Shown: piece after piece, positions 35,410 to 44,758 of the stretch | How the letters are laid out: the number at the start of each line of letters is the position of its first letter | Position numbering within the stretch: the stretch's first letter is position 1 | IMG/VR virus record: IMGVR_UViG_2588253749_000004 | Strand: one strand, 5' to 3' | DNA: 54,473 bases | Source of the DNA: a virus | Taxonomy: Duplodnaviria > Heunggongvirae > Uroviricota > Caudoviricetes | The notes under the pieces: model-generated | The model's database searches: none | What the model was told of the DNA's origin: nothing | Seen by the model: the letters and a program-made list of their open reading frames with translations, nothing else | Position numbers and translations under genes: made by a program

Positions 35410-35625
35410 TTACTCTCCTCTCGCAGCCTTACGCCTGTCTTCTTTAATCTTGAAATAAAGATTTGTCAGATACGTCAGCATGCCAAATACCAGACTACCC
35501 AATACACCTATTGCCGCCCACTGTGAGGGCGTGACTTTATCGAGCAACTGTAAAAACCAGTAGCCAGCACTGCCTGCAGAGGTGCTGTAGGCGATGCCCG
35601 TTGTTAACTTATCCATGGATTTCAT
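35410..35625 (-). CDS. Pinholin (phage 21 S21-type class II holin) with dual-start motif
   Basis: 71 aa starting MKSMDK (Met1/Met4 dual start); sequence closely matches my recollection of S21; two TM segments. Confidence 0.85.
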
Positions 35626-35815
35626 AGCCTCACCTCCGCAGATAACGGATGGTGTACACGGTTTGGTTCGAAGAAGGAAAGAAGTTACATTAGCGTAAGG
35701 CCCGAACATCTATTCAAAAAGAAAAACGCCAGCAATTATTCTGGCGTAGCTAAAAATATCGTATAATCTTACACTTCAAAAAATAACTTTATAAAATGCC
35801 ATCACATCATATCTT

Positions 35816-36538
35816 CTAAGAAAATCTTGATAAATATTGGTGCGGAGGCACACCAAAATATCCTCTAAAAACACTTACAAAATATGATGCATTGTCATAC
35901 CCGCATATTCCCGCCACCTTGCCGACAGTATGGTTACTGTAGATCAATAATCTTTGCGCCATCATCATTCGTTCTTCAAGAATTAATTTACTAAACGATA
36001 ATCCTTCGTCTTTTAATTTTCTTTTTAACAAACTCTCGCTCATATATAATCTTGAAGATATATCACAAAGTCTCCATGACGCTGAGATATCCGAGTGAAT
36101 AATAGCCTTAACTTTACAACCTAAGCTATTAAGACTTCCGAACAAAAAACTTTGCACTATTTTCTCTGAAGATAAGACAGCAAGACATGCAAGTGATATT
36201 TGATTTCTAACTACATCCACGGTTTTGCTATCACAATTCAAGCATGCAACCAAGTTCTTTAACAATGAAAAATCTTCACATTCTACTATCAAGTATGACG
36301 GATAAAACCTTCTTACAGAAAAAGGTGAGAGTGTGTAGTTTTTAAAGAAATCATTAACTGTTTTCTCCTCAACATCTACGATCATTAGATGATCTGTATT
36401 TGACGAAAAAAGATCTTTTAAATTGTATTCAATGAGGACAGCATTTCCTTTTTTAAACAAAATATCTTCTTTACCAATTCGGACACCAAACGAGTTCAAC
36501 ACCAAAATGATAGAACATATGTATGACATATTATCCAC
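35816..36538 (-). CDS. AraC-family transcriptional regulator (AppY/GadX/YdeO-like)
   Basis: 240 aa; C-terminal AraC-type HTH; visibly AT-rich gene. Confidence 0.8.
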   Translation of the reverse strand: MDNMSYICSIILVLNSFGVRIGKEDILFKKGNAVLIEYNLKDLFSSNTDHLMIVDVEEKTVNDFFKNYTLSPFSVRRFYPSYLIVECEDFSLLKNLVACLNCDSKTVDVVRNQISLACLAVLSSEKIVQSFLFGSLNSLGCKVKAIIHSDISASWRLCDISSRLYMSESLLKRKLKDEGLSFSKLILEERMMMAQRLLIYSNHTVGKVAGICGYDNASYFVSVFRGYFGVPPHQYLSRFS

Positions 36539-36935
36539 CTGATATCATTGGGGTTACACCAGGTAAGTATAGGTGGAAAATCAATATTCGCCAGTTCAAC
36601 AATAAGGAAAATCTCATTGCATCACAACTATAAAACCATGTGTTTAACTCACAAAAAACAAATCATTAAACTAATCTGTTATATTATAATAGCTGCGTGC
36701 AATAATAATATTATATGCTCTTTATATTCACTTGAAATATCTTCATATAAAAACAGATTGAATAAAATCTTTTGGGGTTGGTATGTTTACCAACATTAAA
36801 TTGCATCTCAATGTTTTCTTTAGCGTGAACAGGATTTTTATAAAAAATGACACTATGAGCATCATAGCGTAGTTTTTACGATTGTAAATATCCTGCATAC
36901 AGGAACTCATCACTTTCAGATGATATCGCATACAG

Positions 36936-37896
36936 TTAATTCACCATCAGTCTTAGAGCCAGTTCTTCCGGATAGGGATCGAAGTAATTCTGTGTAAGCA
37001 AGTAATCATTAGGATACTCACCCAGATAATGCTTCAGCAGAGTCAACGGCGCAAGAAGAGGCAATGTGCCAAAGCGATAGTTAAGTATAACCTCGCTCAA
37101 CTCTTTACGCTGGCGTGTACTTAAGTAATTACTAAAATACCCCTGTATATGCATCAGCACATTCGTGTGATTTTTACGTGATGCTGGTTTTCTGAGAATC
37201 GCCATCAGATTATCACGATACACCTCAAAGTATGATTCAAGGTCCGCCCACTCGTGTATTGCAGCCACAAATGGTCCCATATCTTTATAGCCTGCCTGGC
37301 TATGCGCCAACAACTGAAGCTTATAACGACTATGAAAAGCTAATAACTCTCTTCTTGATAATTTCTCCTTGTAAAGGTGATTGAGCTCATGCAAAGCAAA
37401 AACTCTTTCAATAAAATTCTCACGAAGCACTGGATCATGTAATCGCCCATCCTCTTCAACCGGTAGCCAGGAAAACTTTTCCATCAAAGTGCTCGTAAAT
37501 AGTCCCACTCCATCTTTACGACCTCGATTACCATTTTCATCATAGACACGCACGCGCTCCATGCCACAGCTGGGAGATTTAGCACAAACCACAAACCCCG
37601 ATACATCCTTTAATTTGTCCATATAAGAACGACTAAACTCTGTCATTCTCTCTGTCACATCCTCATTCTGGTCGTGGCTGAAACACATCCGTATATTTCC
37701 TTGCTTCGAGCGCACAAGTCGTAGAGCAGGACGCGGAAACTGGCAGCCCTATAGCCATTTCCGGACATACTGGTCTGAATGTTACCCATTCCACTAATTT
37801 GTCCATTAAAAAGTCATCTCTTTTGTGACCACCATCAAAACGAACAGCAGAACCGCCCAAACAACCGCTGATCCCAATCACAGGTTTTTTTATCAT
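36936..37896 (-). pseudogene. YbgA-like (DUF523 + DUF1722) gene split by a single-base frameshift
   Basis: ORFs 37663-37896 (N-terminal part) and 36936-37715 (C-terminal part) together cover a YbgA-like protein. Removing one T from the GTTT run at ~37737-37740 restores ...IGLPVPRPALRL... Confidence 0.7.
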
Positions 37897-38088
37897 TTCC
37901 TCCCCCTTGACTAATTCATTAACACATAAACTTTGTAGTGCACGGACTAAATTGCCTTTCTGGCTTCATCACTGACAATTTTTCTGTTATTGACTATTCC
38001 TAATATAGTAGGAAAGTTCTTTAAGTGATCGGTCGTACTCATCTATCTTTCATACTTACTCTCAACTATCAAAAGTACAGGATTTATT

Positions 38089-38613
38089 ATGAAGTTATGG
38101 CCTGTGTTGACTGGCATTGCACTCTCTTTCACTCTTATAGCATGTAAGGCCCCGACACCACCTAAAGGTGTGCAGCCGATTACAAATTTTGACGCCAACC
38201 GCTACCTCGGAAAATGGTATGAAATAGCTCGCCTCGAGAACTGGTTCGAACGTGGTCTGGAACAGGTCAGCGCTACTTATGAAAAACGGAACGACGGAGG
38301 GATTCGCGTACTTAACCGTGGATACGATCCAACGAAAAACAAATGGAGCGAGAGCGAAGGTAAAGCATACTTTACTGGAGATACTAAAACTGCAGCGTTG
38401 AAAGTTTCGTTTTTTGGCCCCTTCTATGGTGGCTATAATGTAATCAAACTGGATGATGAGTATAAGTATGCTCTTGTCAGTGGTCCGAACAGAGAATACC
38501 TATGGATTCTGGCAAGGACCCAAACTATTCCAGATAATGTAAAAGCAGACTATGTGCGTACCGCTCAAAAGTTGGGATTCAATGTCAATGAACTATTATG
38601 GGTTAAACAATAA
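38089..38613 (+). CDS. blc: Outer-membrane lipoprotein Blc (bacterial lipocalin) paralog
   Basis: 174 aa; lipobox LIAC; lipocalin motifs (NFDANRYLGKWYEIAR ...) closely matching my recollection of E. coli Blc. Confidence 0.85.
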   Translation: MKLWPVLTGIALSFTLIACKAPTPPKGVQPITNFDANRYLGKWYEIARLENWFERGLEQVSATYEKRNDGGIRVLNRGYDPTKNKWSESEGKAYFTGDTKTAALKVSFFGPFYGGYNVIKLDDEYKYALVSGPNREYLWILARTQTIPDNVKADYVRTAQKLGFNVNELLWVKQ

Positions 38614-40493: not shown

Positions 40494-40951
40494 CGGTTGT
40501 CTCTGCTGGCGCAGCAGGTGCCAGTTGTTCAGGCTGGCGTATAAAGTATAAATAAACTGGTTCCAGTGTAAAGCCCCTACATTAATGGAATAAAAGTCAA
40601 ACAACAGATTGTTGGGATAAACACAACGCTTATTATTAAAAGCGATTAGATAAATTAAATTTTAATGTTATGCAATTTTACCAGATCACCATAACATCTC
40701 GTTTGAAACCACCAAAACAACAACCATATCAATATTGATTATGTTAAAGTGAGTAAATATGGAAAACAACAAATCTGCACATTACGCTCCTTTTTTATCT
40801 GTGATACTTTTTGTTTTATGCTGTGTGTGGGCATTATTTTTATAAAAATATTTACAGATAAAATAAACCCGCCGAAGCGGGTTAAGTGCGGGTGCATTGA
40901 GGATGCCTGACACATCAGAGGTGGCGAGGGATTTCTCCCTCGCCTGGTCTC

Positions 40952-41107
40952 TTACTCCTCAGGTTCGTAAGCTGTGAAGACAGCGACCTCCGTCTGGCCG
41001 GTTCGGATTCGTACCTCGCAGAGGTCTTTCCTCGTTACCAGTGCCGTCACTATGACGGTTAAACAGATGACGATCAGGGCGATTAACATCGCCTTTTGCT
41101 GCTTCAT
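40952..41107 (-). CDS. hokD: Hok-family type I toxin (HokD/RelF-like)
   Basis: 51 aa MKQQKAMLIALIVICLTVIVTALVTRKDLCEVRIRTGQTEVAVFTAYEPEE; the upstream in-frame extension looks mok-like; hairpins flank the gene. Confidence 0.9.
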   Translation of the reverse strand: MKQQKAMLIALIVICLTVIVTALVTRKDLCEVRIRTGQTEVAVFTAYEPEE

Positions 41108-41722
41108 AGCCTGCTTCTCCTTGCCTTTCGGCACGTAAGAGGCTAACCTACATGTGTCTAGCATGAAATTGGCCTCAGATTAATGTTAAGCGTCTTGCAG
41201 GACGCGTAATGTTAACTGGGGCTTTTCTCTATCTGCCTTTGGTGTTCATGCCTGAGGCAGATAGCCTCAAGCACCCGCAGCAATTCTACTTAACTCACGT
41301 CACCTCGCCAATATAAAATCAATCAGAAAGGCGATCCGTAAGAACAACAGCAAGACAATAAATTGCCATTACAGCCGCAATAGCTAGCGCACATTTGAGA
41401 ACCAGCACGACAACCTCCTGTATTGGACGTACACCAGTCCTGATAAATATGAGGCTGTCTCATCATTGATTCAATATAACTATTGGGTATAGTTTCTGTG
41501 ATTTTGTTCTGTAGAAATGGAACACAACAACCAGTCTCCACCAGCACTTCTTTAAATACGCCAAGTCCGACGCAAGCTAACCTTCTAGTCCGCTTTGAGC
41601 GAACTGTGGAAGCTCGCAAATGTTGTTACATCTGATGAAGGCATTACTCAAAGGAGGGGATAGTAGTCAACGTGGAGCAGGCCATGTTAGTATTTTTATA
41701 CAATTCGACTAAGGGAAAAACA

Positions 41723-42592
41723 ATGAGGCTTTACATAATAGGAAATGGATTTGACATGCGTCATGGCTTACCAACAGGATACAAGCACTTTAAGTCGTAT
41801 GTAGAAAAAAATGACCAAGATCTATATGACGCGATAGAAGAATACATTCCTGCTGGGGACGAGTGGAATGAGTTAGAAAATGCTTTAGGTGAAATTGATT
41901 ATGAGCTTATCCTTCAAAACAGTGAGATATTTTTGGCTTCATACAATACCGATGATTGGAGCGATGCTTATCATCACGATTACCAATATGAAGTAAATAA
42001 AATCACACAAATGCTGTCAGCTCGTTTGAAGGAGCAATTCGCTGATTGGGTTAAAGGGATTAACATAGCCGATGCTTACAATCCTAAGCAATACATCCCG
42101 CCCATACCAAGAGAAAGCATCTATTTTTCATTTAATTATACAAATACCTTGCAGCAGATCTATGCCGTTCCAGACGAGCAAATCATACATATTCACGGCA
42201 ATTGTAGTTACGATGACGATCTCATACTTGGTCATAGTTTTAGGGTGGAAAAGTCACTAAATCCATATATAGGACCGGATCAAGATACAAGAATAGCAGA
42301 GGCATACGACAGAATAAACGAATACTTCGGTAATACATTCAAGCCCAGCGAAGACATAATTAAAGAAGAAAACGTTTTTTTCTCATCGCTTAAAAATGTG
42401 GACGAGGTCATCGTTTTAGGCCACTCGCTCGCCGAAGTTGACGGTGAATACTTTACTGAAATAAATAAAAGCATCCAAGAAAATGCTCGATGGATAGTTG
42501 CTTTATATAGAGGTGAGAAAAAATCAGGCAGTTTAGAAGATTATGGTATCAGAGGCTCAAATATTTCTTACGTACAGTATGAAGATATCTGA
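41723..42592 (+). CDS. AbiH-family protein (abortive-infection AbiH-like)
   Basis: About 289 aa from MRLYIIGNGFDMRHGLPTGYKHF, which resembles the AbiH N-terminal signature as I recall it; visibly AT-rich; RBS present. Confidence 0.7.
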   Translation: MRLYIIGNGFDMRHGLPTGYKHFKSYVEKNDQDLYDAIEEYIPAGDEWNELENALGEIDYELILQNSEIFLASYNTDDWSDAYHHDYQYEVNKITQMLSARLKEQFADWVKGINIADAYNPKQYIPPIPRESIYFSFNYTNTLQQIYAVPDEQIIHIHGNCSYDDDLILGHSFRVEKSLNPYIGPDQDTRIAEAYDRINEYFGNTFKPSEDIIKEENVFFSSLKNVDEVIVLGHSLAEVDGEYFTEINKSIQENARWIVALYRGEKKSGSLEDYGIRGSNISYVQYEDI

Positions 42593-42675
42593 ATGAGACT
42601 TCATATTATAACTATAATTATGTAAAAAAGGCTGGTATTTTATACCTTGAGGAAAATAGATAAGAGGAATGAGGT

Positions 42676-44073
42676 TTGGTTATGATGAATTATACTGATG
42701 AGTCAACTTTTCTTGAAAAGTACAAACCGTTTAGGAAGTTTTGGACAATTTTATCACCTCATTATGTATCTTTAATGCATGCACTTGCCAAAATGATAAG
42801 GGGAGGGAATCCAATTCAAGAACTACCTTCCAATGATGAGGATTTTCTTGCAGAGTATGAAACCTGTCTCAAAAATTGGAAACACTCACAAAAAATCATA
42901 TCTTTTGAGATTATTATTCGGCTGAGAGATATAAAAAGATTGGAAACTGAAAAAAAAGAGCACCATCGAAACAAGGATAAAGAAAATAAAGAAAAGTGTA
43001 TTGATGAAATAAGTTTAAAAAAATTTGAAATTCTTATTCTTCGCCGTTGTATTGACTCAATAATTTGGAGCATTCTTGATGAAGAACACTCTAGTTTGCG
43101 GCGTTTACCTATTAATGCAAGCAATGACAATCTATCAGAAGATAACATAATTGATTCTATGGTCGCAGCCGATCTTATCAACCAGGACAAACACTCCGTA
43201 GCGATTGTCTCTGACATGAGCACATTTGTTCATGTGGGAGATTTAGTCACCTTTAATCTACTGGATGGCTTCCAGCTCGTGGAAGTTAAAACAGGTGAAA
43301 AGAATAATGAGCTTTATGAAGCTGCTGAATTTTCTGTTATCTCAGAATGTCCGCACTTTGAAGAAAACTTCATTAACAATATGCCTGATAATGATGTTAA
43401 GCAATTTAATCGCATAAAAAGGCAAATCATTCGTGGCATGAATGTTCTGGAGGCGATTAATACTGGCGAGGGCTTTGACAACTTTCATCAGTCTAAAGTT
43501 AAAATCAATGAGATAGATCATCCGTCTGAATTTTATACCCACCGCTTAGTTAAAATGTGGGAGATTATTCGCGGAGGAAAAAATTGGGCAATTGATACTA
43601 TTGATGAATGTTTGTTCTTAGGTATGTACCGTGATTCTGAAATGGGCTTTGTTGCCTTCAATGGATGGATGGATAGTCTCGGTATAAAAAGCCCTGTTGT
43701 GAATATAAATGATTCATTCTTTGACCCTTTGTCTCGACCATTTATGAGTTTGCATCTGCCAACTGAAATGCTCTCCGATCTCATGTCGGGACAAATAATC
43801 ATCGTCATGTGTTTTGACAATGAACTTTTTTTTCACCGTGCTAACAAAACGTACCCGGGTTTATATCTCCTTAGCGATGCAGCAAGAACAAAGCAGCCAT
43901 TAGAAAATATTCTTCGTGTTGGTTCACAAGGGATAGCTTCTTACGTAGATGGGAATACCAGCTTTTTAGGTAATGGTATTGAATCCCGTATCCTTTTCGA
44001 TCAGCAACGACCCGACAACATTATTGAGTGGAGCTATGCTAGAAGCGATCTCAAAAAGCAACATGAAGCATAA
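42676..44073 (+). CDS. Hypothetical 465-aa protein, co-oriented partner of the AbiH-like gene
   Basis: Long uninterrupted ORF with GAGG RBS, 83 bp after the AbiH-like gene; visibly AT-rich; contains a possible PD-(D/E)xK-like motif (VHVGDLVTF...LVEVKTGEK). Function unknown. Confidence 0.6.
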   Translation: MVMMNYTDESTFLEKYKPFRKFWTILSPHYVSLMHALAKMIRGGNPIQELPSNDEDFLAEYETCLKNWKHSQKIISFEIIIRLRDIKRLETEKKEHHRNKDKENKEKCIDEISLKKFEILILRRCIDSIIWSILDEEHSSLRRLPINASNDNLSEDNIIDSMVAADLINQDKHSVAIVSDMSTFVHVGDLVTFNLLDGFQLVEVKTGEKNNELYEAAEFSVISECPHFEENFINNMPDNDVKQFNRIKRQIIRGMNVLEAINTGEGFDNFHQSKVKINEIDHPSEFYTHRLVKMWEIIRGGKNWAIDTIDECLFLGMYRDSEMGFVAFNGWMDSLGIKSPVVNINDSFFDPLSRPFMSLHLPTEMLSDLMSGQIIIVMCFDNELFFHRANKTYPGLYLLSDAARTKQPLENILRVGSQGIASYVDGNTSFLGNGIESRILFDQQRPDNIIEWSYARSDLKKQHEA

Positions 44074-44335
44074 GCCGTTGGATGGGATTTCCCATGAATT
44101 GCCATGGATAATCTAGACACTTCGAGCCGTTGATAATGTTGATTTTCGTATTCTGTCGGTGGAGTATCCCGAAAGGTATAGAGCAAAACCTGGAGAAAAC
44201 ACACAGCATCCCATTTTAATCTTTAACTCTGACCTTCTATAATGTCCGCTGTTGGCACAAAGCGGACAACCACGCTAGCTCTACCCTGTGCCACAAAATG
44301 TCAATTTGCATCTGAACTAATGCACTTTAATCTCG

Positions 44336-44758
44336 TCACTTCAATAAATACCGAACATCCCCCTGATAAAACGACAATATGCGCTGCATAACTTCGCTTT
44401 TACGACACTCAGTACAAATCATATTATGACGCCTGTCGTAACGACGTATTTCTCCATCAGGTAATGACCAGATAAGGTCCGGATCAACCGCAGATGGTTT
44501 CTTCAGCTTTGCCCTTGAGAGCTTTTTACGGGCATTTTGCCAGTCCTTACGCGCCTGTTCAGACGGGAATAACCCGTAACCAGAGTTGTATACATCGCCA
44601 CTGGCAACCAGCTCTCTGGCCAGAACGTTCATCATATATTTTGTTGCCCCAGTTTTAGTTTCCAGTTGTCTTAACGTCTCGCGCCCACTCTGGCGTACGA
44701 GTTCAACAACCTGCCCTTTAATTTTTTCCCGCTCTTCTTGTGTAAAAACTTTTGCCAC
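44336..44758 (-). CDS. Hypothetical protein (140 aa)
   Basis: ORF downstream of the O-like gene; CxxC near the C-terminus. No confident assignment. Confidence 0.45.
   Translation of the reverse strand: MAKVFTQEEREKIKGQVVELVRQSGRETLRQLETKTGATKYMMNVLARELVASGDVYNSGYGLFPSEQARKDWQNARKKLSRAKLKKPSAVDPDLIWSLPDGEIRRYDRRHNMICTECRKSEVMQRILSFYQGDVRYLLK

Follow-up and report, generated by a model that had tools for sequence, protein, structure and literature searches.

One-gene AbiH has been validated in Lactococcus and Vibrio; AbiH is Sir2-like (PMC13064643; 10.1101/2024.06.14.598830), and a 2024 preprint describes it as a one-gene system with a SIR2-like domain, for which the protection measured in Vibrio was 5.7 orders of magnitude (10.1101/2024.06.14.598830). 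PD-T4-5, a single plasmid gene, and HEC-08 have also been validated alone, neither with a partner of the kind described below. Here we analyse a 54,473-nucleotide stretch of DNA from a virus of the Caudoviricetes (IMG/VR record IMGVR_UViG_2588253749_000004), the whole of which we call the window, in which an AbiH gene (gene 1; 41723-42592, + strand, 289 amino acids) is followed by a member of an unnamed family (gene 2; 42682-44073, + strand, 463 amino acids). The original prediction, made from the sequence alone, was that the two could form an undescribed two-gene defence system. We find instead that the pair is, with a probability we would place at about even, composite cargo of a prophage hotspot, in which a known one-gene Sir2-like abortive-infection (Abi) gene stands beside a new candidate family of single-gene, nuclease-like defence proteins.

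The identity of gene 1 is unambiguous from its sequence. Its product, which begins MRLYIIGNGFDMRHGLPTGYKHF, matches Pfam family PF14253 over profile positions 1-258 of 260 (E 6.6e-69, 233.3 bits against a cut-off of 30.9) and the PADLOC AbiH model at 1.3e-27, and the family proposed originally is thus borne out. In an alignment of 33 homologues, G7-N8-G9-F10-D11, N138-Y-T, H158-G159 and G233-H234-S235 are invariant, and we take the order and spacing of these motifs to match the GAGxS, TQNxD, HG and GTS motifs of sirtuins. By analogy with the family, the product is predicted to be a Sir2-like NADase effector; a search of gene 1 against PDB profiles returned chance matches only. The end-to-end profile match and the invariant motifs are shared with Lactococcus lactis abiH and the one-gene AbiH of Vibrio (both PF14253), as is residence on a mobile element, but gene 1 differs from other AbiH genes in being a gammaproteobacterial prophage copy of 289 amino acids with an unrelated conserved gene 3′ of it. 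RefSeq starts gene 1 at an ATG at 41684; because homology to the copies on other elements begins only at 41686, and AbiH is annotated there with 289 amino acids, 41723 is the better start. An IS1 interrupts this AbiH gene in several E. coli genomes (e.g., NZ_AP024687.1, 2481432-2484909), with gene 2 annotated as intact.

As AbiH is already known, the value of the locus lies in its neighbour. Gene 2 is labelled a hypothetical protein in every source and has no match in Pfam, PADLOC, NCBIfam or PHROGs (in PADLOC-DB 2.0, none at E <= 1), in keeping with the original description of it as uncharacterised. The length of 465 amino acids given at that time holds if translation begins at a TTG at 42676, but the ATG at 42682, used by RefSeq and by all homologues, is the more likely start and yields the 463-residue protein to which our residue numbers refer. 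A word-indexed search for homologues gave 48 clusters from Enterobacterales and Aeromonas; an exhaustive profile search gave 684 representatives at E <= 0.001 (180 at <= 1e-30), so that the family comprises at least 684 sequence clusters, with no Pfam domain among its representatives. A word-indexed search seeded with an alignment of distant members gave 2 proteins only, a scan of genome contigs gave 3 loci, and a degenerate DNA pattern gave one short contig. Members are mostly ~450 amino acids long and are full-length across Proteobacteria. One subfamily, of 485 amino acids, has a C-terminal tail rich in Lys and Arg, which is missing from the E. coli protein. Four distant relatives were compared with PADLOC and had no match there. 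A few relatives (P0164, P0165, P0167 and P0185) have an N-terminal extension of ~250 amino acids, with no Pfam or PADLOC match.

In an alignment of 111 gene 2 proteins reaching down to ~20% identity, D178, D187, E201, K203, G205, R244, Q248 and P444 are invariant. The segment spanning residues 178-203 (43213-43290, + strand), in which D178, G186-D187 and E201-x-K203 are invariant in both the 111-sequence alignment and one of 75 sequences, is predicted to form a beta hairpin with a PD-(D/E)xK-like centre. The AlphaFold2 model has a predicted local distance difference test score (pLDDT) of 83.5 overall and of 93.6 over residues 132-463, and comprises a long antiparallel helical hairpin with a Lys-rich tip (residues 52-131; 42835-43074, + strand; helices 52-96 and 100-131, pLDDT 90-97), an alpha-beta-beta-beta-alpha unit, a helical segment, and a C-terminal alpha/beta domain (residues 286-463; 43537-44070, + strand) with the conserved motifs WAI..IDECLxxGxY and FDxxxP. 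In this model, D187 precedes the strand 188-192 and E201-x-K203 lies at the end of the strand 196-200, which places an acidic residue at the start of beta-2 and a conserved (D/E)xK on beta-3, as in PD-(D/E)xK nucleases. Because the modelled geometry looks like that of a PD-(D/E)xK centre, the possible GD...EVK nuclease motif of the original prediction (G186-D187...E201-V-K203) can be regarded as the conserved core of the family, with D187, E201 and K203 invariant in all 111 sequences; the fold that the motif was taken to indicate was not confirmed by fold or profile comparison. Like Shedu SduA (DUF4263, PD-(D/E)xK), gene 2 would be a single-protein nuclease-type effector, in this case of ~450 amino acids with a D...D...ExK centre, and the two share a variable or helical N-terminal part and an occurrence in defence islands and prophage hotspots. 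Gene 2 departs from SduA in matching neither DUF4263 nor any other PD-(D/E)xK family by sequence, profile or fold, in having a different C-terminal domain, and in being only a putative nuclease.

Both genes are real and are under purifying selection, since dN/dS (the ratio of nonsynonymous to synonymous substitution rates) is 0.20-0.33 for each when copies of the pair are compared, and homologues of each are numerous. As first described, they are co-oriented in an AT-rich island, on the + strand of a prophage stretch that is otherwise coded on the - strand, and the gap between them is 83 nucleotides (nt) from the TTG start or 89 nt from the ATG start of gene 2. Together they make up a 2.4-kb cassette, further copies of which, with gaps of 88-90 nt, are found in a Klebsiella lambdoid prophage (88% identity; window 41588-44268), on an Enterobacter IncFIB SSU5-like phage-plasmid (93% identity), and on an IMG/VR contig (window 41686-44095); across these copies, the two genes have similar synonymous divergence (dS). 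A search for terminator-like sites between AbiH and gene 2 was negative. The pair thus has the common strand, short gap and terminator-free spacer of an obligate two-gene defence operon, but lacks the other mark of one, co-occurrence across diverged homologues of both genes.

The AbiH gene forms a mobile module of its own (41587-42619, + strand), consisting of 136 nt of upstream sequence, the gene, and 27 nt of downstream sequence, which is 89.7% identical to three Morganellaceae loci (L020-L022) that have no gene 2; in Morganellaceae, this module sits in several defence islands, and in Serratia an AbiH gene 75% identical to gene 1 stands alone. A perfect -10 hexamer, TATAAT, occurs at 42613-42618 in the intergenic spacer (42593-42681, + strand), exactly where the AbiH module meets the gene 2 module, and a ribosome-binding site, GAGGAATGAGG, precedes the ATG at 42682. 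Relatives of gene 2 are in turn solo in about two thirds of 30 non-redundant contexts: in P2-like prophages (flanked by tail genes, or directly behind the integrase), in Tn7-like cargo, on small plasmids, adjoining Gabija in Aeromonas, and after purC in Pseudomonas. Gene 2 proteins that are 70-79% identical to one another are found both with and without a partner. Defence remains the most plausible function for the locus, as was originally supposed, but a single two-gene unit is not supported, because AbiH is a one-gene system elsewhere, its 90%-identical module lacks gene 2, and gene 2 mostly occurs alone or behind unrelated defence genes. On these sequence comparisons, an obligate system of AbiH plus partner is likewise not supported; functional coupling of the two is possible. 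The spacer contains no repeat array, and the only RNA family found in the region is sok, by which a ToxIN-like RNA antitoxin was ruled out.

Within two genes of the 30 non-redundant gene 2 loci, ~14 of 109 proteins (~13%) match PADLOC, the matches being to AbiH, PD-T4-5, GajA/B, LmuA/B, PDC-S19/HEC-08, SoFic, Aga nuclease and PDC-S31. An Abi_2 protein matching PD-T4-5 (1e-31) is encoded 18-37 nt ahead of the gene 2 relative in Pantoea and in one further lineage; the two Abi_2 proteins are 57% identical, and their gene 2 partners are 43% identical and belong to different subclades. In Dickeya the gene 2 relative lies 17-20 nt downstream of a gene for a DUF3644 protein with a restriction endonuclease domain, which matches PDC-S19/HEC-08, and in Xanthomonas it follows a Cap4-nuclease gene and a 572-amino-acid gene, a pair that we read as the LmuA-LmuB of Lamassu. 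PD-T4-5 (an Abi_2/AbiD-F relative) and HEC-08/PDC-S19 (a DUF3644 HEPN protein) thus hold, in Pantoea and Dickeya respectively, the position that AbiH holds here, directly 5′ of gene 2, although they are unrelated to AbiH by sequence and differ from it in predicted chemistry (HEPN RNase versus Sir2). This company argues strongly that gene 2 is defence-related. The order, Abi gene and then gene 2, may reflect cooperation or mere clustering. At a locus of Albitalea terrae (L007, 7431-8144), a gene 2 relative overlaps by 4 nt a downstream gene with a Schlafen AlbA_2 domain (Pfam, 1e-16), which may be another type of partner. On a Bacillus cereus megaplasmid (L068, 4001-4890), a distant relative (26% identity) is fragmented over three small open reading frames (ORFs) just 3′ of genes for a reverse transcriptase and an AAA ATPase.

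The cassette is carried in a slot of interchangeable cargo. An identical region in E. coli strain 503025 belongs to a Qin-type cryptic prophage flanked by ydfJ and rspB, with the gene order Q antiterminator, ydfU (DUF968), hokD, AbiH, hypothetical protein, DUF977, a replication-like gene, YdaT, and two helix-turn-helix (HTH) regulators. The flanking phage genes are all on the - strand, with hokD, sok, ydfU/DUF968 and Q on one side and DUF977, the replication-like gene, YdaT and the HTH regulators on the other; the antisense RNA sok of the hokD module (41102-41276, - strand; Rfam RF01794, 119.9 bits, E 5.6e-28) lies in the conserved left flank, outside the cargo. In three other alleles of the slot, homology to the window stops at 41603-41606 and restarts at 44241-44242, and because the three break at the same flank points we define the variable cargo as 41604-44240. 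This 2637-bp segment has a G+C content of 0.373 against 0.493 for the window, in which no 2.6-kb stretch is lower. The flanks occur in thousands of E. coli genomes, and the whole island occurs in 65 of 5426. Alternative occupants of the slot include a DUF5677 protein, a DUF4209 protein (matching PADLOC PDC-S39 at 8e-103), QueH with a methyltransferase remnant, a pair of hypothetical proteins (333 and 320 amino acids), DUF7167 accompanied by several hypothetical proteins, and, in O157 and K-12 respectively, an alpha/beta hydrolase and relBE. The region between hokD/sok and DUF977 of Qin-type lambdoid prophages is thus a cargo hotspot with fixed breakpoints.

The original view that the island is accessory cargo at the relBE position holds, in that relE-relB directly adjoin hokD in Qin of the K-12 type. 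The position beside hokD is the same, but relBE, a type II toxin-antitoxin pair, is small and lies on the - strand, and the present cargo consists of two large, unrelated genes on the + strand. The slot resembles the P2/P4 hotspots and the prophage loci of an E. coli pangenome screen (PMC9519451) in having conserved flanks and interchangeable low-G+C cargo, some of it known defence, and differs in location, from hokD/sok to DUF977 in Qin-type lambdoid prophages. Searches of the literature by accession and locus terms found no description of the slot or of gene 2. Near the right edge, homology with the phage-plasmid copies stops at 44095, next to a 69-nt stretch (44094-44161) that is 91% identical to part of a Serratia locus (L024, 1981-2049) beside an IS3-type rve transposase; to judge from this similarity, it may be the remnant of an insertion-sequence (IS) end involved in movement of the cassette.

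How the two genes came to lie together, and what gene 2 does, can be accounted for in several ways. One could envision a modular two-gene system in which gene 2 is the common partner (a sensor, regulator or back-up effector) of interchangeable upstream effectors, be they AbiH/Sir2, Abi_2 HEPN, or DUF3644 HEPN with a restriction endonuclease. This would fit the finding that three unrelated Abi-type genes are each followed, on their own strand and after 17-90 nt, by a gene 2 relative; it would also fit the recurrence of the Abi_2 pairing in two gene 2 subclades despite the divergence noted above, the preservation of the intact cassette, its two genes equal in dS, on three kinds of element, and the missing terminator. 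However, each upstream partner (AbiH, PD-T4-5, HEC-08/PDC-S19) is a validated or candidate single-gene system, the 90%-identical AbiH module does without gene 2, most gene 2 contexts are solo, gene 2 proteins 70-79% identical to one another occur in both states, and the modules meet at a perfect -10 hexamer, so that we hold this to be a minority possibility, well short of even. A toxin-antitoxin-like module in place of relBE, with one product the toxin and the other its neutraliser, would explain the exact position beside hokD and would suit both the potential toxicity of AbiH-type Sir2 proteins and the survival of intact gene 2 beside IS1-disrupted AbiH genes. We rejected it as very improbable, since AbiH and gene 2 each occur alone, in many genomes; moreover, both proteins are large (289 and 463 amino acids) with conserved catalytic-type residues of their own, and a gap of 83-89 nt leaves no overlap or tight translational coupling between them.

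Alternatively, gene 2 might not be anti-phage at all, and might serve the mobile element selfishly or competitively, for instance in recombination, in the exclusion of plasmids or prophages, or as a homing-type endonuclease of the free-standing kind, and merely insert beside other cargo. Its appearance as a lone and often oppositely oriented insert within P2-like structural modules, its siting in Tn7-like cargo and immediately after integrases (2 nt apart, or overlapping by 4 nt), the IS-related remnant abutting the cassette, and its absence from every defence database are in keeping with such a function. We nevertheless think it improbable: these positions are also classic slots for prophage morons and defence genes, defence genes account for ~13% of close neighbours, and the family is under purifying selection and full-length across Proteobacteria. 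Among isolated phage genomes in GenBank, none carries the cassette or gene 2, which would be unexpected of a phage homing endonuclease. The reading that we favour, of two single-gene defence modules in one hotspot, has its own difficulties. The family is not in PADLOC 2.0, and the putative nuclease centre has no relative among PDB profiles (chance matches only) or in BFVD by Foldseek, a probability of <1% by hhalign against three PD-(D/E)xK proteins of the loci compared (Cap4 nuclease, PDDEXK_4 and Mrr_cat), and no sequence or profile similarity to a PD-(D/E)xK member family in Pfam, NCBIfam or PADLOC. Gene 2 relatives also recur directly 3′ of Abi-type genes, 17-90 nt away and with no terminator in between, which could mean that the two are coupled. 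All of these weigh against it.

Under the favoured reading, two independently mobile single-gene defence modules would now co-travel as the 2.4-kb cassette. AbiH, by inference from its family, would sense infection and destroy NAD+, thereby aborting the infection. Gene 2, with its N-terminal helical hairpin, its centre of D178, D187, E201 and K203 together with R244 and Q248, and its conserved C-terminal domain, would act as a stand-alone, metal-dependent nuclease-type effector that guards the lysogen against other phages or mobile DNA, and the two proteins would act independently. A bolder version, which we consider unlikely, would make the gene 2 family a widespread new anti-phage protein with a fold unlike solved structures, acting alone or as a portable second layer behind AbiH/Sir2, Abi_2, DUF3644 HEPN and Lamassu; the gene 2 nuclease might, for example, fire once the upstream effector is triggered or is blocked by a phage anti-defence protein. 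The gene 2 family has invariant catalytic-type residues and a confident predicted structure with no recognisable known fold; its members are confined almost entirely to defence islands, transposon cargo, plasmids and the morons of prophages, and defence databases do not list it. Gene 2 is thus a cheap and well-defined candidate for a new single-gene defence family, with D178, D187, E201, K203, R244 and Q248 as its invariant catalytic-type residues, and its position behind three unrelated one-gene Abi systems makes it a concrete case of the question of whether adjacent defence genes cooperate. The slot between hokD and DUF977 offers, in addition, a ready catalogue of further candidate cargo in E. 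coli prophages.

The edges of the slot carry short repeats. The heptamer GTCCGCT is found at both, at 41588-41594 on the left and, on the right, within a boundary hairpin, GTCCGCTgttggcacaAAGCGGAC (44244-44267). The island also lies between the arms of an imperfect inverted repeat of 36 nt (41575-41610 / 44245-44280). The heptamer and the inverted repeat could represent a recombination site or could be due to chance. The conserved flanks themselves span 40865-41603 and 44241-44700 of the window, and in the left one, between sok and the cargo edge, lies an unannotated Cys-rich ORF of 98 amino acids (41323-41619, - strand) that may be spurious. A second low-G+C stretch within the prophage (~35450-38200, G+C ~0.29-0.39) consists, by comparison with another locus (L001), of an IS1 copy, an AraC-family fragment, a YbgA-family gene and blc.

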